From: Nitrospirae bacterium JdFR-86
GTDB lineage: Bacteria > Nitrospirota > Thermodesulfovibrionia > Thermodesulfovibrionales > JdFR-86
Length of the DNA stretch: 64,000 nucleotides
Direction of reading: 5' to 3'
NCBI GenBank assembly: GCA_002011815.1
Contig: MTOV01000015.1
Location: 1,405 to 65,404, forward strand
A program made the position numbers and the translations under genes. The notes beneath the pieces are model-generated. The model ran no database searches and was not told where the DNA came from. It was given only the letters and a program-made list of their open reading frames with translations. Positions 9,259-53,003 of the stretch are shown here, piece by piece. Numbering within the stretch: position 1 is the first letter of the stretch; each line of letters begins with the position of its first letter.

Positions 9259-9287
9259 AAAATTTCATGGATTTAAGGAGTCCGGAT

Positions 9288-11774
9288 ATGATAGAGCTTA
9301 CGATTAACGGAAAGAACATTTCAGTAGAACCTAACACCACAATTTTGCAGGCGGCTTTGGCTAACGGGATATACATTCCGCATCTGTGCTGGGACAGGAG
9401 GCTTGCGCCTTACGGTGGATGCAGGCTTTGCCTTGTTGAAGTAGAAGGGCAGAGGAAGCTTCTTGCAGCGTGTTCGACTCCTGCGGAAAACGGCATGGTC
9501 GTGCAGACAGAGACGCCAAAACTGCACAAGGCAAGAAGAACAGTGCTTGAGCTTTTGCTCATACACCATCCTCTTGACTGCCCTGTATGTGACAAGGCAG
9601 GCGAGTGCGAGCTTCAGGACCTCGCCTTCAAATACGGACCGTCTGAAAGCAGGTTTAAAGGAGAGAGAAAGCACGAGCCTGAGAACCTTGCCGCACCGCT
9701 TGTCGAACGAAACCCCAACAGGTGCATACTATGCGGCAAGTGCGTAAGGGTCTGTAGTGACCATCAGGGTGTTGGCGCAATAAACCTCATAGGCAGAGGG
9801 TTTACGACAAAGGTCAGTCCTGCCTTTGAGGAAACGCTTGACTGCGAGTTCTGCGGTCAGTGCATAGACGCCTGCCCGGTAGGCGCTCTCGGAAGCAAGC
9901 CTTACAGATTCCGCTCAAGAGTGTGGTTTATGGAAGAGCAGGAGACAGTCTGTCCATACTGTGGTTGCGGATGCACGCTTACGCTCGGTATCAGAGAAGG
10001 CAGGATAATACGCTCAAGAGGGCAGGACGGCGTTGGTATAAGCAAAGGCGATCTCTGCGGCAAAGGCAGGTTCGGCTTTGACTACCTGTATTCAGAGCAC
10101 AGGCTGTCCACCCCGCTTATAAGAAAAGGAGAGGAACTTGAGCCTGCTACATGGGAAGAAGCTCTCTTTTTCATAAGTGAGGAAATCAAGAGGATTAAGG
10201 ATAAATACGGGGCAGAGGCAATAGGTGCTATAGGTTCTCAAAGATGCACGGTTGAAGACAACTACATGCTTCAGAAGTTCATGCGGGAAGTGGTTGGTTC
10301 AAACAACATAGACTCTGCGGCAAGATTCGGCTATGCAAAGATTCAGGAGGCTGTTAAAAAGGCATTCGGGATTAATGCCCTGCCGATAGATTTCGACTCG
10401 CCTTTAAAGGTAGATGTGATACTTGTTGTAGAGTCTGATATAACGTCAACGCATCCTGTGTTCGGACTTAATATTCTCATGGCGAAGAGGCAGGAGGGTG
10501 CTACTGTCATAGTTGCTGACCCGAAATTTACAAAGCTTTCAAGGCACAGCTCGAAATGGCTCAGGATGAAGCCGGGCACTTCTATTGCCCTTATGAACGG
10601 CATAATGAAGGTAATGCTTGATGAAGGGCTTGTCAGCGAAGATGCGACAAAGATTCCTAATTTCGATTCACTTAAAGAGACTTTAAACGACTATACGCCT
10701 GAGAAAGTGGCTGAGATTACAGGTGTGAGTGCCTCTGATATAGTGGATACGGCACGTAAGTTCGCACAGGCTAAAAACAGACTGCTTTGTCTTACAATCG
10801 GTGATTCTGAAAACACAAAGGGCTTGAATACTGCGCTGGCTGCAGCCAATCTTGTGCTTCTTTCAGGCTCAGGACCTGAGGCTTTGCAGATGCCTGCAGA
10901 GTTTTCAAACACGCTGGGGCTTTATGAAGCAGGCGTCAGACCGGACTGCACTGCCGCACATAAGCCTGTGGAGAACAAAGGGCTTGACATCTACGGCATG
11001 CTTTATGATGAAAACTCTCCTATAAAGGCGCTTTACATAATGGGAGAGAATCCGGTTGTAACATTCCCGCGTGCAAATTTTGTCGAGGGAGTGCTTAAAG
11101 GGCTTGATTTTCTCGTTGTTCAGGACATAATGCTTACGGACACTGCAAAACTTGCTGATGTTGTGCTTCCGGCTTCAAGCTGGTCGGAAAAAGAAGGCAC
11201 ATTCGTAGGCACAACAGGCATCCCGCAGAGGGTCGTGAAGTGTGTCCCTGAGACCGGACTTTCAATCCCTGACTGGATGATACTCAGGAACCTTGCAAGA
11301 ACCATGCAGAAGGACATCGGGGCAAAGGACATCGAAACCCTTAAGGCAGAGATAGCACAGAATATTGATTTTAAGTTTGAGATTTCAGAATTCGAGCCTT
11401 CGTTCAACCCTGTAGTTTACAGTGGCGGTGAGTCCCCTGACAGTGAGTATCCGCTTTGTATGGTTACAGGCATTCTTATGCAGCATTCAGGCAGTCTTAC
11501 AATACTGTCCAAGAGCCTGGGCAGTGTTGTCTCGGATGCCTATTTGCAGATAAACGATGCTGATGCCAGAAAGTTCAGCGTTAAGGATGAAGAATATGTC
11601 AGGGTTATATCAAGAAGGGGAGAGGTGTATCTCAAGGCGAAAGTCACCGATGAGGTGCCGGAGGGAATGCTCTTTGTGCCTGCTCATTTCCCGCATGCAA
11701 GGGTCAATGCGCTTACATACCCTCCTTCTAACGGTGACTCGCCGGTTGTTGCTGTGAAGATAGAACCAGCTTAA
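9288..11774 (+). CDS. NuoG/FdhA-like Fe-S and molybdopterin-oxidoreductase-fold subunit lacking the FDH catalytic Cys/Sec-His
   Basis: The ATG at 9288 lies 7 nt after AAGGAG. N-terminal 2Fe-2S (CRLC), HPLDCPVCDKAGEC, two 4Fe-4S motifs and MopB CPYCGCGC...CGKG. Where FDH has ARVC/UHGP, this sequence reads AARFGYAK (10305-10340). Confidence 0.8.
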   Translation: MIELTINGKNISVEPNTTILQAALANGIYIPHLCWDRRLAPYGGCRLCLVEVEGQRKLLAACSTPAENGMVVQTETPKLHKARRTVLELLLIHHPLDCPVCDKAGECELQDLAFKYGPSESRFKGERKHEPENLAAPLVERNPNRCILCGKCVRVCSDHQGVGAINLIGRGFTTKVSPAFEETLDCEFCGQCIDACPVGALGSKPYRFRSRVWFMEEQETVCPYCGCGCTLTLGIREGRIIRSRGQDGVGISKGDLCGKGRFGFDYLYSEHRLSTPLIRKGEELEPATWEEALFFISEEIKRIKDKYGAEAIGAIGSQRCTVEDNYMLQKFMREVVGSNNIDSAARFGYAKIQEAVKKAFGINALPIDFDSPLKVDVILVVESDITSTHPVFGLNILMAKRQEGATVIVADPKFTKLSRHSSKWLRMKPGTSIALMNGIMKVMLDEGLVSEDATKIPNFDSLKETLNDYTPEKVAEITGVSASDIVDTARKFAQAKNRLLCLTIGDSENTKGLNTALAAANLVLLSGSGPEALQMPAEFSNTLGLYEAGVRPDCTAAHKPVENKGLDIYGMLYDENSPIKALYIMGENPVVTFPRANFVEGVLKGLDFLVVQDIMLTDTAKLADVVLPASSWSEKEGTFVGTTGIPQRVVKCVPETGLSIPDWMILRNLARTMQKDIGAKDIETLKAEIAQNIDFKFEISEFEPSFNPVVYSGGESPDSEYPLCMVTGILMQHSGSLTILSKSLGSVVSDAYLQINDADARKFSVKDEEYVRVISRRGEVYLKAKVTDEVPEGMLFVPAHFPHARVNALTYPPSNGDSPVVAVKIEPA

Positions 11775-47521: not shown

Positions 47522-48703
47522 ATGGGCGGTAATAACATGGGTTTGCAAAAAAAGACGAAGATAGCCTATCTTGACTGCTTCTCAGGCATAAGCGGGGATA
47601 TGTGCCTTGGTGCGCTCGTCAGTGCAGGCGTGCCTTTAAAGCATATAAAAAAAGAGCTTAAAAACCTTCCGATTGAAGGCTACAGCCTTGCAGAGAAAAA
47701 AGTTAAGCGCTCAGGGATTGAGGCGACAAAGATAGAAGTAAAGGTTGCGGACAGCCCTCCAAGGGCATGGAAGGACATCCGGAGGATAATTCAGAAATCC
47801 ACCCTTTCGCCTGATATCAAAGATAAGGGATTAAGGATATTTAAGAGCCTTTTTGAAGCCGAGGCAAAGGTGCACGGTGAGTCTTTTGATAAAATCCACC
47901 TCCATGAACTCGCAGCAGTAGACTGCCTTGTTGATGTGTTCGGCACGTTAATCGGCATTGAAGCCCTTGGAATTGAGGAAATATACTCCTCGCCTCTAAA
48001 CCTGGGAAGCGGGCAGGTGAAGTCGGCTCACGGCATGCTTCCAGTCCCTGCACCTGTAACCGTGGAGCTGTTAAAAGGCATCCCTGTGTATTCCGCAGAG
48101 ACTCCTCATGAGCTTACAACACCGACAGGCGCAGCCATCATCAGGGAGATTTCATCAGGCTTCGGCAATATTCCGATGATGCGGATAGACAAAACCGGAG
48201 CGGGCGCAGGCAGCAGGGATATAAAAGACAGACCAAACATATTGAGAATCTTTATCGGAGAGGGCAAGCCTTCAGAGCCAGCAATTACAGTAATCGAAAC
48301 CAATATAGATGACATGAACCCCCAGATTTACGAACACCTCATGGACAGGTTGTTCAAGGCAGGCGCACTGGATGTTTACCTCACACAGGTCATTATGAAG
48401 AAAGGAAGACCTGGCATAAAACTCACAGTGCTTTGCACAGATGACAAAAGACAGAAACTTATAGAGACGGTATTCAGGGAGACCACTACAATCGGCGTGA
48501 GATTCTTCAGGGCGGAAAGAACAGTCCTCGAAAGAAAGATAAAGGAGATAGATACAAAGTTCGGAAAGATAAGAGTAAAAGAGGCAAGGTTTGACGATGG
48601 AGTCAGGGCAACGCCTGAGTATGAAGACTGTAAGAAAGCGGCAAAAAGGCACAATGTGCCGCTCATCGAAGTAATCAGGCAGGTTAGAAAATCACTCGGC
48701 TAA
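47522..48703 (+). CDS. larC: LarC-family nickel insertion protein (DUF111)
   Basis: YLDCFSGISGDM N-terminal motif at family-typical length. The start may be the ATG at 47537. Confidence 0.8.
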   Translation: MGGNNMGLQKKTKIAYLDCFSGISGDMCLGALVSAGVPLKHIKKELKNLPIEGYSLAEKKVKRSGIEATKIEVKVADSPPRAWKDIRRIIQKSTLSPDIKDKGLRIFKSLFEAEAKVHGESFDKIHLHELAAVDCLVDVFGTLIGIEALGIEEIYSSPLNLGSGQVKSAHGMLPVPAPVTVELLKGIPVYSAETPHELTTPTGAAIIREISSGFGNIPMMRIDKTGAGAGSRDIKDRPNILRIFIGEGKPSEPAITVIETNIDDMNPQIYEHLMDRLFKAGALDVYLTQVIMKKGRPGIKLTVLCTDDKRQKLIETVFRETTTIGVRFFRAERTVLERKIKEIDTKFGKIRVKEARFDDGVRATPEYEDCKKAAKRHNVPLIEVIRQVRKSLG

Positions 48704-48707
48704 GGCA

Positions 48708-49589
48708 ATGGACATACATCAACTGAAGATATTTGTATCTGTCTTTAAGAATAAGAGCTTTTCAAAGGCATCTGAACAACTGCACCTTACACAGCCTACT
48801 GTAAGCGAACATATCAGGACACTTGAAGAGGAGCTTGACCTGAAACTCTTTGACAGGGCAGGAAGACTGGTAATCCCTACAAAAGAAGCCGAACTCCTTT
48901 ATCCCCGCGCCATGGAGATAATCGAGAAGGTCAAGGATATGAAGTCGGCTGTGGGAAGGTTTAAAGAGCAGGTAAGCGGGGAGCTGGTTATCGGGGCAAG
49001 CACCATCCCAGGCACATATATTATTCCGTCTCTGGCATCTAAATTCAAAAGAAAATATCCGGAGGTCTCCTTTCATGTAGTGATAGGTGACTCGAAAAGG
49101 ATAACCGAGATGGTCTTGAATCACGAGATACTTCTTGGCATTGTCGGTGCGAAGATGGACAAAGGCAGGGTGGAGTATGTTCCATTCGTAGAAGACGAGC
49201 TTGTGCTTGCCGCACTTCCGGGGCTTATTGCCAAGACAGTGATTGCTCCCGGAGAACTTGCCGGTATTCCGTTTTTGCTGAGGGAGGAAGGCTCTGGCAC
49301 AAGAAAGACAATGGAAAAACATCTCTCTGAAAAAGGAATCAGCCTTGATAATATGAATGTGGTCGCCGTTTTAGGCTCGACGGATTCTATAAAAGAGGCG
49401 GTTAAGTCAGGGCTTGGGGCTTCAATCCTGTCGAGACTTGCCATAAGGGAAGAACTGAAAGAAGGCAGGTTGAAAGAAATCAGAATAAGAGGGCTCAGCA
49501 TGAAAAGGAGCTTTTATATCATCACGCATAAAAGACGCACACTCCCGAAACAGTATCAGGCCTTTTTTGAATACCTGAAAAAGAAATAG
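48708..49589 (+). CDS. LysR-family transcriptional regulator
   Basis: N-terminal wHTH (FSKASEQLHLTQPTVSEHIRTLE) and a LysR substrate-binding domain. Confidence 0.9.
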   Translation: MDIHQLKIFVSVFKNKSFSKASEQLHLTQPTVSEHIRTLEEELDLKLFDRAGRLVIPTKEAELLYPRAMEIIEKVKDMKSAVGRFKEQVSGELVIGASTIPGTYIIPSLASKFKRKYPEVSFHVVIGDSKRITEMVLNHEILLGIVGAKMDKGRVEYVPFVEDELVLAALPGLIAKTVIAPGELAGIPFLLREEGSGTRKTMEKHLSEKGISLDNMNVVAVLGSTDSIKEAVKSGLGASILSRLAIREELKEGRLKEIRIRGLSMKRSFYIITHKRRTLPKQYQAFFEYLKKK

Positions 49590-49689
49590 ATTTTTCCTAT
49601 ATATTTCATTCATTTTATCAATATTAACTATTGGACTTGTTCTGGGGAGCTTGCCTAAAATTTTTTGATAAGTCTTTTGTTTTGAGCAA

Positions 49690-49784
49690 GAGGGGCATGG
49701 GGCTGGTGCCCCACCTGGTCTGCAAAACCAGGGGCAGGGTTGAGAGTCAGCCCTGGTGGGTTCGATTCCCACTGCCCTTCTCCA
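49690..49784 (+). tRNA. atypical tRNA with tRNA-Sec-like architecture, anticodon GCA and discriminator U
   Basis: Hand fold. 8-bp acceptor GAGGGGCA/TGCCCTTC. D arm TGGGGC-TGGT-GCCCCA. 6-bp anticodon stem CCTGGT/ACCAGG with loop CTGCAAA. 23-nt variable region forming about 9 bp. T arm GTGGG-TTCGATT-CCCAC, then T-CCA. Confidence 0.75.
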
Positions 49785-49813: not shown

Positions 49814-51751
49814 ATGCCGCATAAAAAGGTATTGTTTATTACCCCGTCCTACCATTGCGGGGTTGTGGAAGTAGCCGGTCATTGGATTCCCCTTCAATTC
49901 GTCTATCTTGGCGGCGCTGTCAGGGAAGCAGGTTTTGAGCCGATTGTTTACGATGCCATGACAAAGCGGCATAGCCTTGAGACAATAGCAAAAAAGATTG
50001 CAGATGTAAATCCGGATTATGTCGCTACCACGGCAATCACCGCAACAGTGCTTGATGCGCTGGAGGTTCTAAGGGTTGCAAAGGAGATAAATCCGGATAT
50101 CATCACCATTATTGGAGGGGTGCATCCTACTTTTCTTTATGACGAGGTTCTTGAGAACAAATATGTTGATTATGTTGTAAGAGGAGAGGGGGAGGAGACC
50201 ATTAAAGAGCTGCTTTTAGCTCTGGAAGGAGGCAGGGGACTTGACCGTGTAAGGGGGATAGCATACAGGAGCGGACGGCAGGTTATAACCACGTCAGCAA
50301 GGCCTTTTATTCAGGACTTGGACGGGCTTTCTCCTGCGTGGGACTTAATCGACTGGAAGGATTACAGGTATTTCGTCATACCCCGCAGCCGGCTTGGAGC
50401 GGTAAGCACCTCAAGAGGCTGCAGTCATAACTGCGCCTTTTGTTCACAGCAGAAGTTCTGGCATCAGTCGTGGCGGGGAAGGCAGCCAGAAAGTGTGGTT
50501 AAAGAGCTGGAACATTTAACCAGGACTTACGGGGTCAATGTCTTTTTAATCCCTGATGAGCATCCTACACAGGACAGGGAGCGGTGGGAAAGACTTCTTG
50601 ACCTGCTTATAGAAAGGGACTTGGGCATATATCTCCTGATGGAGACAAGGGCGGAAGACATCGTAAGGGACAGGGATATCCTGTACAAGTATAGGAAGGC
50701 AGGGGTTGTCCATATCTACATAGGGGTTGAGGCGACAAGGCAGGAGACGCTTGACCTTATAAAAAAAGACATGAAGGTGGAGACCGGAGCAGAGGCAATA
50801 AGGCTTATTCACGAGCACGGTATGATTACCGAGACGAGCTTTATCTTAGGCTTTCCGGACGAGACGAAAAAATCGATAAGAAACACCCTCAGGCTTTCCA
50901 AGTTTTACAATCCGGATTTCGCACATTTTCTTGCACTGGCTCCATGGCCCTATGCCGATATGTTCAAAGAGCTTGAACCTTATATCGCAGTAAGAGATTA
51001 CAGGAAATACAATCTTATCGAGCCTGTCATCAAGCCTGAAAAGATGAGTATCAAGGCTGTGGACAAGGCAATCATTGACTGCTACCAGAGCTTTTACATG
51101 AGCAAGCTCAAAGAGATACTGTCAATGGAGGATGCCTTTAAGAGAGGCTATCTGCTACGTTCCATGAAATTGATAATGAGCAGCTCGTTTATTGTAGACA
51201 AACTTGGCTCGCTCGGCAGGATTCCGCCTCAGGTCAACGCACTGCTTAATAAGCTGGAGAAGGAGAAAGTGGCGGATGAAGGCGTGCCGCAGGACTCGAT
51301 GTCAGAAGTATCAAGGTCTGTAAAGATCAATGCACCCTTGGGAAAAGTTTTTGAATATGTTGTAAACCCTTTAAACTGGCCCAGTTATGTTATGAGCCTC
51401 GTAAGCGTGAAGAACCTCTCCAACAAGGTTCCTGTATCAGGCACTACGTTTGAGTGGACATACAGAATGCTCGGCCTGAATCTAAAAGGCAAGGGCAGGG
51501 TGCTTGAATACGAAAAGGACAAAAAGTTTGCAGTAAAGATGCATGGTGCATTTCCAATAATAGAGACGTTTCTGTTTGAAGGAGACTCTAAGGCAACAAG
51601 ATTGACCATTAAAATCAACTATGAAGTTCCCGGCAAGGTGCTTGGTGTTTTAGCTGACAAACTTCTCATAGAGAAGATAAATGCGAAAGAGGCAGAGACC
51701 GTGCTTAAAAAAATAAAGATGATTTGTGAAAGCGAAAGTGCTACCATGTAA
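49814..51751 (+). CDS. B12-binding-domain radical SAM enzyme fused to a C-terminal SRPBCC (START/polyketide-cyclase-like) domain
   Basis: N-terminal cobalamin-binding-like Rossmann region. CSHNCAFC (CxxxCxxC) radical SAM cluster. The C-terminal about 150 aa (VSRSVKINAPLGKVFEYVVNPLNWPSY...) is SRPBCC-like. Confidence 0.75.
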   Translation: MPHKKVLFITPSYHCGVVEVAGHWIPLQFVYLGGAVREAGFEPIVYDAMTKRHSLETIAKKIADVNPDYVATTAITATVLDALEVLRVAKEINPDIITIIGGVHPTFLYDEVLENKYVDYVVRGEGEETIKELLLALEGGRGLDRVRGIAYRSGRQVITTSARPFIQDLDGLSPAWDLIDWKDYRYFVIPRSRLGAVSTSRGCSHNCAFCSQQKFWHQSWRGRQPESVVKELEHLTRTYGVNVFLIPDEHPTQDRERWERLLDLLIERDLGIYLLMETRAEDIVRDRDILYKYRKAGVVHIYIGVEATRQETLDLIKKDMKVETGAEAIRLIHEHGMITETSFILGFPDETKKSIRNTLRLSKFYNPDFAHFLALAPWPYADMFKELEPYIAVRDYRKYNLIEPVIKPEKMSIKAVDKAIIDCYQSFYMSKLKEILSMEDAFKRGYLLRSMKLIMSSSFIVDKLGSLGRIPPQVNALLNKLEKEKVADEGVPQDSMSEVSRSVKINAPLGKVFEYVVNPLNWPSYVMSLVSVKNLSNKVPVSGTTFEWTYRMLGLNLKGKGRVLEYEKDKKFAVKMHGAFPIIETFLFEGDSKATRLTIKINYEVPGKVLGVLADKLLIEKINAKEAETVLKKIKMICESESATM

Positions 51752-51777: not shown

Positions 51778-52404
51778 GTGGAGCCGAAAAACCTGGATGT
51801 AAGAGGGCTTAAGTGTCCTGAGCCTCTAAAGAGGACTCAGGAGGAACTGGAATCAATAAAAGAAGGCGTTTTAGTTGTTCTTGCCGAAAGTCCTGCAAAT
51901 TTGAGCATAGAGAGGTTTTCAAGGAAGTCAGGGTTTAGGATCGAAAGCACCAAGCGCGAGGGCTACCACGAGCTTAAGATAATAAAGACTCCTCACAGCA
52001 AGCCGAAAAAAGAAGGCATCCTGCAGAGGCTTATGCGGTTTGTGAAGAGAAACAAACAGGTTGAGGGGTTGAATGATACGATGGTTGTGGTCTCAACGAA
52101 TGTGTTTGGAAGACACGAGGACATAGGCAGGGTGCTCATGAAAGGGTTTTTTGAGACGATGAAGGTTATGGGTGACATACCGGCTGTCATGTTTTTCATG
52201 AACTCAGGGGTTTTGCTTACTACAACGGATGAGGAGATAATTCCCCTGCTTAAAGAATTTGAGTCCGAGGGCGTGGAGATATACTCCTGCAGCACCTGTC
52301 TTAAGCACTTTAATCTTGAGGAAAGTCTAAAGGTCGGACAGGCAGGAGGCATGGCAGTGCTTACCGACGGAATGAGAACATATAAGAAAATTGTAACTAT
52401 ATAA
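51778..52404 (+). CDS. yedF: YedF-type selenium-metabolism protein (TusA/SirA-like N-domain + DsrE-like C-domain), copy 1
   Basis: GTG start after GGAGGTGG. The motif is GLKCPEP (CPxP) and the C-terminal motif is YSCSTCLKHF. Confidence 0.7.
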   Translation: MEPKNLDVRGLKCPEPLKRTQEELESIKEGVLVVLAESPANLSIERFSRKSGFRIESTKREGYHELKIIKTPHSKPKKEGILQRLMRFVKRNKQVEGLNDTMVVVSTNVFGRHEDIGRVLMKGFFETMKVMGDIPAVMFFMNSGVLLTTTDEEIIPLLKEFESEGVEIYSCSTCLKHFNLEESLKVGQAGGMAVLTDGMRTYKKIVTI

Positions 52405-52418
52405 GAGGTGTTGTTCTG

Positions 52419-53003
52419 ATGGTTATTGATGCACGGGGTCAGGCGTGCCCCAAGCCTGTGATGATGGCTGAAGAGGCGGTCTCTAAAATCGGAGAGGGCA
52501 TAGTCGAAGTACTCGTTGACAACGAAGCCTCGGTCAAAAACCTTTCGAGATTTGCAAAAAACAATGCCCTGTATGCAGAGACCGAAAAGGTAGATGACTA
52601 CTGGAAAGTCAAGATTGTCAAAGGCTATCCCTGCGAGATTGCAGAGGAAGAAGAAAAACCGTTGGTGGACAAAGGGGTTTTTCTTATCATCGGCACTGAT
52701 GTGATGGGCAAGGACGAAGACATCGGAAGGGTGCTCATGAAAGGCTTCTTTGAGACCATGAAGGTGACAAAGGAACTGCCGCAGTCCATATTCTTTTTGA
52801 ACAAAGGAGTGATGCTGACTACAACAGACACCGAAATTATTCCTGTACTCAAGGAGCTTGAGTACATGGGTGTTGAGATATACTCCTGCGGCACGTGTCT
52901 TAAGCACTACGGGCTTGAATCAGAGCTTAAAGTAGGCCACCGGGGCACGACAAATCACATAATTGAAGGGCTGAAAGAGTTTAAAAAGGTCGTATGGATT
53001 TAA
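52419..53003 (+). CDS. yedF: YedF-type selenium-metabolism protein, copy 2
   Basis: ARGQACPKPV (CPxP), GRVLMKGFFETMKV identical to copy 1, and YSCGTCLKHY. Confidence 0.75.
   Translation: MVIDARGQACPKPVMMAEEAVSKIGEGIVEVLVDNEASVKNLSRFAKNNALYAETEKVDDYWKVKIVKGYPCEIAEEEEKPLVDKGVFLIIGTDVMGKDEDIGRVLMKGFFETMKVTKELPQSIFFLNKGVMLTTTDTEIIPVLKELEYMGVEIYSCGTCLKHYGLESELKVGHRGTTNHIIEGLKEFKKVVWI

Follow-up and report, generated by a model that had tools for sequence, protein, structure and literature searches.

Among the transfer RNAs (tRNAs) that resemble bacterial tRNA-Sec, the closest described relatives of the gene treated here are the selC* tRNA-Cys species, which were defined by three traits: a tRNA-Sec-like body, U73 as the discriminator base, and GCA or UCA as the anticodon (Mukai et al. 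2017, NAR 45:2776, PMC5389517). Their body has an acceptor stem of more than 7 bp, a long variable arm and an anticodon stem longer than the canonical one. The hosts are Firmicutes, Thermodesulfobacteria, Nitrospirae (Thermodesulfovibrio) and Proteobacteria, their genomes always carry the complete selA/B/C/D machinery, and in some deltaproteobacteria a second selB, sometimes also cysS, lies downstream of selC* (PMC5389517). The CysRS of D. tiedjei was functional in vitro, in a cysteinylation assay using selC* tRNA (PMC5389517). The class was renamed tRNAReC by Vargas-Rodriguez et al. (2018, RNA Biol 15:471), as summarised in later papers, and the tRNAReC of Desulfotomaculum (D. nigrificans) decodes UGA as cysteine and is delivered by SelB, without interaction with EF-Tu (PMC11415595; PMC13582414). 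By its working definition, a tRNAReC is 80 nt or longer, has GCA or UCA as its anticodon and carries U as the discriminator (PMC13582414). Here we describe a tRNA-Cys(GCA) gene of this shape in a stretch of 64,000 nt of Nitrospirae bacterium JdFR-86 (contig MTOV01000015.1, positions 1,405 to 65,404, forward strand), called the window in what follows, and we assign it to the selC*/tRNAReC class with high confidence. The class and its UGA-to-Cys mechanism were already published in 2017-2018, and the window tRNA is a further member of it, not a new kind of tRNA. An earlier note, made from the letters alone, had named a "SelC-like tRNA-Cys" of Mukai, Soll and colleagues and taken this locus for a member; such a class does exist, and the window tRNA agrees with it in sequence.

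A tRNA-Cys with anticodon gca was called by ARAGORN at 49690-49784 on the + strand, with coordinates identical to those of the cloverleaf drawn by hand in the earlier note. The hand fold, with helices of 8, 6, 6, 9 and 5 bp followed by U73 and CCA, was the same in the minimum free energy (MFE) fold of the 95-nt RNA (ViennaRNA; -56.1 kcal/mol, z = -4.36). Equally good folding was not seen in any of 200 shuffled sequences. In the MFE fold the acceptor stem is formed by 8 bp, GAGGGGCA/TGCCCTTC, including one G-U, and the D stem by 6 bp (TGGGGC/GCCCCA) closed by the 4-nt loop TGGT. The anticodon stem has 6 bp (CCTGGT/ACCAGG) and the loop CTGCAAA, the variable arm, 23 nt long, has 9 bp, and the T stem is completely paired with 5 bp (GTGGG/CCCAC, loop TTCGATT). 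The acceptor and T stems add up to an uninterrupted helix of 8 + 5 = 13 bp; the first pair is G1:C72, and the discriminator U73 is followed by an encoded CCA. The covariance-model check that had been proposed for the fold gave an end-to-end match with the Rfam tRNA-Sec model RF01852 (49690-49780, model positions 1-91, 66.7 bits, E 2e-11), above the gathering score of 47. The general tRNA model of the same clan also hit this region, but more weakly, and only the RF01852 match was kept.

The window locus was found to be identical in the JGI metagenome 3300037583 and in two other public assemblies. By a degenerate pattern scan with one genome per species, tRNA-Sec-shaped tRNA-Cys(GCA) genes were detected in many anaerobes. 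The closest relatives in named genomes belonged to Nitrospirota and Thermodesulfovibrionales metagenome-assembled genomes (MAGs), and in one close relative (L110) the acceptor stem is identical to that of the window tRNA. A clade-specific pattern scan of metagenome contigs was carried out afterwards and contributed 106 further loci. After removal of duplicates and non-members, the alignment contained 91 distinct sequences, mostly metagenomic. The search patterns had fixed the anticodon arm and the T arm, whose invariance in the relatives carries no evidence, and in members whose linker is 2-3 nt long MAFFT put the 5' end in the wrong place, so that the counts of acceptor pairs are slightly conservative.

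Across these 91 relatives 93.4% of the pairs were standard, and changes on both sides were observed at 14 pairs; column shuffles gave 8.5 +/- 1.3 such pairs, and controls with slid partners 3-5. The seventh acceptor pair was UA in 45 sequences, CG in 27, UG in 4 and AU in 2, while the eighth was AU in 80, GC in 8 and other in 3. The extra acceptor pair is thus maintained by compensatory change, and with it the 8/5 instead of a 7/5 helix. Double changes were present at every one of the five inner D-stem pairs; the sixth was standard in 62 of the 91 relatives, with five pair types. The variable region, of 22-37 nt, had 83 different sequences, and a hairpin of at least 5 bp was predicted in 88 of the 91. 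Among 93 family members, U73 was found in 92 and the complete U73-CCA end in 91. Meanwhile, the 6-bp anticodon stem, taken in the earlier note as a hallmark, held for the window sequence and failed for the family: the sixth, outermost pair is unpaired in 79 of the 91 relatives, so the longer stem was rejected as a family hallmark and is considered a trait of the window sequence.

A covariance model, R1, was built from the alignment of the window clade, and it gave 101.1 bits to the window tRNA, which is itself included in that alignment. The tRNAs of Desulfotomaculum-like Firmicutes, Carboxydothermus, Ammonifex and Thermosulfurimonas were scored at 49-77 bits, and those of Desulfotomaculum copahuensis, Desulforamulus, Desulfoscipio and other Peptococcaceae at 55-77 bits, a set that did not include the tRNA of D. 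nigrificans itself. Ordinary long-arm tRNA-Cys remained at 40 bits or less, and the window's own tRNA-Ser at 27.6 bits.

These results lead to the class assignment. With 95 nt, GCA at 49722-49724, U at 49781 and a CCA end, the window tRNA has the length, anticodon and discriminator of the working definition of tRNAReC. The tRNA-Sec-like body of selC* is recognised in the 66.7 bits with RF01852, in the eighth acceptor pair and in the variable-arm hairpin kept among relatives, and the homology to Desulfotomaculum-type members in the R1 scores of 55-77 bits against at most 40 for ordinary long-arm tRNA-Cys. On the longer anticodon stem of selC* the observations diverge, with 6 bp in the window tRNA and a sixth pair left unpaired in 79 of the 91 relatives. 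By comparison with the other classes, GCA and U73, the latter in 92 of 93 members, separate it from tRNA-Sec (selC); the 8/5 arrangement, the 23-nt arm and the 95 nt from canonical tRNA-Cys (7/5, variable loop of 4-5 nt, about 74 nt); and the 13 bp of the 8/5 helix from the allo-tRNAs, which have a 12-bp acceptor/T helix (8/4 or 9/3). The coordinates of the tRNA, its parts and its neighbours are collected in Table 1.

Table 1. The tRNA gene, its parts and the adjoining features, in window coordinates.
Feature	Position	Strand	Basis
tRNA gene, 95 nt, selC*/tRNAReC-type tRNA-Cys(GCA) (assigned with high confidence)	49690..49784	+	ARAGORN, Rfam, MFE fold, model R1
Acceptor stem	49690-49697 with 49773-49780	+	
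D arm	49698-49713	+	
Anticodon arm	49714-49732	+	
Anticodon GCA in loop CTGCAAA	49722..49724	+	
Variable arm	49733-49755	+	
T arm	49756-49772	+	
U73	49781	+	
Encoded CCA	49782-49784	+	
Promoter-like and operator-like block (putative function)	49616..49661	+	consensus scan and conservation in relatives
Selenium-metabolism LysR-family regulator (LysR_Se), ends 100 nt upstream of the tRNA	48708..49589	+	NF040786, 326.4 bits, cut-off 250
B12-binding radical SAM protein with C-terminal SRPBCC domain, starts 29 nt after the tRNA	49814..51751	+	PF02310, PF04055, PF10604
YedF-like selenium metabolism protein, copy 1	51778..52404	+	TIGR03527, 156.9 bits, cut-off 110
YedF-like selenium metabolism protein, copy 2	52419..53003	+	TIGR03527, 204.5 bits, cut-off 110

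Two other groups of tRNAs came close to this shape. In eight loci of Cloacimonadota MAGs the tRNA is tRNA-Sec-shaped, with GCA and a long variable arm (57-68 bits with R1), but its encoded CCA appears to follow a G and its first acceptor pair to be mismatched; these tRNAs fall outside the tRNAReC definition and could be Ser/Sec-type tRNAs reading Cys codons. Eleven loci from Mollicutes, Clostridium/Bacteroides, Armatimonas and other MAGs carry a 7/5 tRNA-Cys(GCA) with a class-II-like long variable arm, which we keep separate from the selC* type because of R1 scores of 40 bits or less.

The selenium-handling genes that the earlier note had placed beside the tRNA were recognised by family models, LysR_Se upstream (NF040786) and two YedF genes downstream (TIGR03527). 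Lin et al. found no LysR_Se outside organisms with SelD, and YedF was nearly as restricted (PMC5322559); the genes beside the window tRNA are thus indirect support for selenium machinery in the same genome. It is copy 2 of yedF whose orthologues come after the tRNA in relatives, where the YedF2-like genes show 54-85% identity in full-length matches. Among the 75 relatives with enough downstream flank, yedF was located on the same strand within 3.2 kb of the tRNA in 19 and selB (TIGR00475, 358 bits) directly downstream in 14, and not one had both. A LysR_Se homologue was found within 1.5 kb upstream in 14 of the 65 relatives with enough flank on that side. The selB-linked tRNAs constitute the subclade with a linker of 2-3 nt between acceptor and D stem, and the window belongs to the LysR_Se - tRNA - yedF type. 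The sister subclade, with a full-length selB and never yedF, resembles the selC*-selB* pairs of deltaproteobacteria; the distance from the tRNA to the selB start is about 20-50 nt in eleven of its loci and in others. The context of LysR_Se - tRNA - yedF or tRNA - selB in this clade is possibly new. The main text of PMC5389517, taken without its supplements, mentions neither the LysR_Se - tRNA - yedF order nor a conserved promoter and dyad, and yedF occurs in it 0 times.

The radical SAM-SRPBCC gene was rejected as a member of the conserved module, since by tblastn it stands beside the tRNA only in the window's own contigs; this gene and the second yedF copy, a tandem duplicate, are insertions specific to the window lineage. 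The radical SAM protein (49814-51751) is BchE-like, with 447 bits and below the cut-off of 481, and is fused to an SRPBCC/polyketide-cyclase domain. Directly upstream of the LysR_Se gene, at 47522-48703, there is a gene for LarC-type nickel-pincer cofactor insertion, for which no link to the tRNA was seen in the relatives. The small open reading frames (ORFs) flanking the window locus had no Pfam match. In 14 relatives a transglutaminase-like lipoprotein gene (PF01841) ends just 5' of the tRNA (for example L133, 42-1142), and in 17 loci a 185-aa protein without Pfam or NCBIfam match is encoded directly 3' of it (for example L220, 955-1518), sometimes between the tRNA and yedF. It was also possible to see, in six loci and others, neighbours from families named by NCBI after a connection with selenoproteins, with a partial match below cut-off to "dicluster-binding protein near Sec" (NF045663) and an ArsM-ArsS radical SAM (seleno)protein fusion, and a double-cubane-cluster reductase recurs there.

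Upstream of the tRNA, the block of 49616..49661 has promoter-like and operator-like elements. The dyad-like TATCAATATTAACTAT, of ATAG-N7-CTAT type, fits T-N11-A, which is the form of the sites of LysR regulators, and abuts the -35-like TTGGACT at 49631-49637; the -10-like TAAAAT lies at 49656-49661. A generic promoter scan picked independently TGGACT-18-TAAAAT at 49632-49661. In the window and seven related loci the order is tCTATAtat, about 17 nt, tATAGATATTatCTATT[T/G/A]GACTT, about 17 nt, a -10-like hexamer, about 8 nt and the tRNA, and CTATT[T/G/A]GACTT is conserved in L110, L131/L171, L158, L202, L203 and L207. The -35-like box ends 29-30 nt 5' of the tRNA in relatives and 51 nt in the window, where an extra insertion of about 21 nt lies between the -10 box and the tRNA. 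The extended operator-like motif occurs once in the window, in this block; further matches were sought there and none appeared elsewhere, so that no regulon could be defined. No terminator-like site was found between the tRNA and the radical SAM gene. In ten other loci, which form a second subclade, the 14 nt directly 5' of the tRNA contain a near-invariant GGCTATACCTGAAT/C, and this subclade block differs from the window-type promoter block.

Sensing of selenium status was proposed for the LysR_Se subfamily, whose orthologue in archaea, HrsM, determines whether Sec or Cys isoenzymes are used (Lin et al., PMC5322559). Taking into account that the tRNA appears to have its own promoter beside a LysR-type dyad, that LysR_Se lies upstream and that no terminator-like site precedes the radical SAM and yedF genes, the arrangement of the locus suggests that transcription of the tRNA is selenium-dependent in this clade. 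More tentatively, a LysR_Se/HrsM-type regulator would bind the dyad and switch the tRNA and the downstream yedF operon according to selenium supply, so that Sec or Cys would be chosen at the same UGA codons through transcription of a tRNA; we consider this extension rather doubtful. If true, it would be a bacterial counterpart, at the level of a tRNA, of what HrsM does in Methanococcus, where it switches between Sec and Cys isoenzymes.

While this analysis observed how the tRNA is built, that its structure is conserved with covarying pairs, and that selenium genes are linked to it in the genome, the mechanism is taken over from the characterised Desulfotomaculum member. By homology, CysRS would recognise U73, G1:C72 and the GCA anticodon and attach cysteine to the tRNA. 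With its 8/5 acceptor/T helix of 13 bp, the tRNA would escape EF-Tu and become a ligand of SelB, which would deliver the Cys-tRNA to a UGA codon followed by a SECIS hairpin, and cysteine would be inserted despite the G34-A mismatch. The outcome would be a cysteine back-up for selenoprotein synthesis. That the full Cys-at-UGA mechanism operates in this organism seems to us a reasonably probable reading. Of the two functions that the earlier note had considered conceivable, the literature favours the Cys-charged Sec mimic, with cysteine put at UGA, and does not favour the recoding of Cys codons to Sec.

Several points weigh against such a role. The functional data on the class were obtained in E. 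coli with a Desulfotomaculum tRNA, from outside the Nitrospirota. In the 64-kb window and about 8 kb of flank, we found neither selA, selB, selC, selD, cysS or a canonical tRNA-Cys nor a UGA-containing selenoprotein gene. GCA is fully cognate for UGC/UGU, and ordinary Cys decoding is possible with it. The invariance of the anticodon and T arms among relatives was imposed by the search patterns. Most clade members depart from tRNA-Sec in a linker of only 0-1 nt between acceptor and D stem, and 79 of the 91 in the absent sixth anticodon-stem pair. Any of LysR_Se, YedF and SelB was seen nearby in only 25 of the 52 relatives with both flanks available, and the promoter-like hits in the region numbered 8, against 6.3 +/- 3.0 in shuffles, that is, without excess.

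The partners of the tRNA were also looked for among the genes at hand. All ORFs with one in-frame TGA, taken as candidate client genes in the six frames of the window, corresponded to ordinary stops between neighbouring genes. At 9267-11774, after a NuoF-like gene, an 835-aa FdhA/NuoG-like protein is encoded (Fer2, 4Fe-4S and molybdopterin domains). The active-site motif of Fdh is RV[C/U]HG; this protein has ARFGYA in place of the Cys/Sec-His motif, and it was rejected both as a formate dehydrogenase selenoprotein and as its Cys form. Because it is without that motif, it is probably not a catalytic formate dehydrogenase. No tRNA-SeC was detected by ARAGORN among the 232 fetched loci, and the clade and window loci contained few other tRNAs.

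The explanation that competes best with Cys insertion at UGA is an elongator tRNA-Cys of odd shape, delivered by EF-Tu and reading UGC/UGU, either as an extra isoacceptor or as the only tRNA-Cys, whose selenium neighbours would be the leftover of a selC ancestor. Such a function would agree with the standard Cys identity elements GCA, U73 and G1:C72, with the activity of other non-canonical, long-acceptor tRNAs in normal translation in E. coli (PMC5389517), and with the lack of a canonical tRNA-Cys in the 64-kb window. We consider it unlikely, though, because the characterised member of the class does not interact with EF-Tu (PMC11415595) and the selC* genomes were reported with complete Sec machinery (PMC5389517). 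Furthermore, the 8/5 helix is kept by compensatory changes, and nothing would lead an ordinary tRNA-Cys to retain a selenium linkage that extends across many species, with selB directly downstream in the sister subclade.

A true tRNA-Sec with a sense anticodon is clearly less probable still; it would be charged by SerRS through the long variable arm, its Ser converted to Sec by SelA, and delivered by SelB to UGC/UGU codons with a SECIS element. The match with the Rfam tRNA-Sec model would be expected of it, and so would an acceptor stem of 8 bp and a D stem of 6 bp closed by 4 nt, features that SelA and SelB recognise. No gene with a Cys codon followed by a SECIS element was found in the window, and U73, constant in 92 of 93 members, forms with GCA the identity set of CysRS. 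In the literature, Mukai et al. held U73 compatible with SerRS in allo-tRNAs (PMC5389517), and Sec at UGC codons by a tRNA-Sec(GCA) is documented (PMC11415595); against these stand the CysRS of D. tiedjei, active in the assay using selC* tRNA (PMC5389517), and the Desulfotomaculum member, which inserts Cys and not Sec (PMC11415595). Least probable of all is a non-translational role or a relic, that is, a regulatory RNA, a Cys carrier for YedF or the radical SAM protein, or a selC-derived pseudogene: an apparent common transcription unit with radical SAM and YedF genes of unknown function would suit it, and Mukai et al. allowed such roles for some non-canonical tRNAs, but the universal tRNA features (T loop, CCA end, 7-nt anticodon loop) are intact, the compensatory changes and the conserved promoter speak against decay, the radical SAM gene is not conserved beside the tRNA, and the alternation of YedF and SelB contexts fits a link with Sec translation better than a cofactor role specific to YedF.

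With 91 distinct sequences, the family is abundant in uncultured Nitrospirota-like bacteria and forms a large, previously under-sampled clade, whose tRNA has two mutually exclusive selenium contexts, LysR_Se - tRNA - yedF or tRNA - selB. The functional partitioning between tRNAReC and tRNA-Sec "remains unclear" (PMC13582414). As to when and why cells use tRNAReC over tRNA-Sec, the conserved promoter and the LysR-type dyad offer a testable answer, selenium-dependent expression. For annotation, a UGA codon in a selenoprotein gene of such a genome may stand for Cys.

By comparison with the known systems, the window tRNA has in common with selC*/tRNAReC the tRNA-Sec-like body with its 8-bp acceptor stem and long variable arm, U73, the GCA anticodon and G1:C72, anaerobe hosts that include Nitrospirae/Thermodesulfovibrio, and the linkage to selenium genes, which in some lineages means selB immediately downstream. 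The selC* of deltaproteobacteria has an 8/4 arrangement with a bulged A51a (main text of Mukai et al.), whereas the window clade has an uninterrupted 8/5 helix of 13 bp. The clade also differs from selC*/tRNAReC in its linker of only 0-1 nt between acceptor and D stem and in the sixth anticodon-stem pair, which is usually missing. With bacterial tRNA-Sec (RF01852) it shares the 8/5 helix, the 6-bp D stem with UGGU tetraloop and the long variable arm; the differences are GCA instead of UCA, U73 instead of the G73 that tRNA-Sec carries, a shorter acceptor-D linker and the predicted amino acid, Cys rather than Ser converted to Sec. The sense-anticodon tRNA-Sec species described in 2016 by Mukai and colleagues reportedly keep G73 and SerRS/SelA identity. 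One of them, the tRNA-Sec(GCA) of Aeromonas salmonicida, inserts Sec at Cys (UGC) codons (Mukai et al. 2016, Angew Chem; cited in PMC11415595). The window tRNA is like it in the tRNA-Sec shape with GCA and in the cross-talk between Sec and Cys coding, and unlike it in having CysRS identity and U73, its class putting Cys at Sec codons. Finally, the allo-tRNAs (Mukai et al. 2017, PMC5389517) came out of the same tRNA-Sec-like search, and their variable arm and acceptor stem are long as well. Their acceptor/T helix has 12 bp (8/4 or 9/3), their identity is Ser or Ala and their anticodons vary, while the window tRNA is distinguished from them by its 13 bp (8/5) and its Cys identity.

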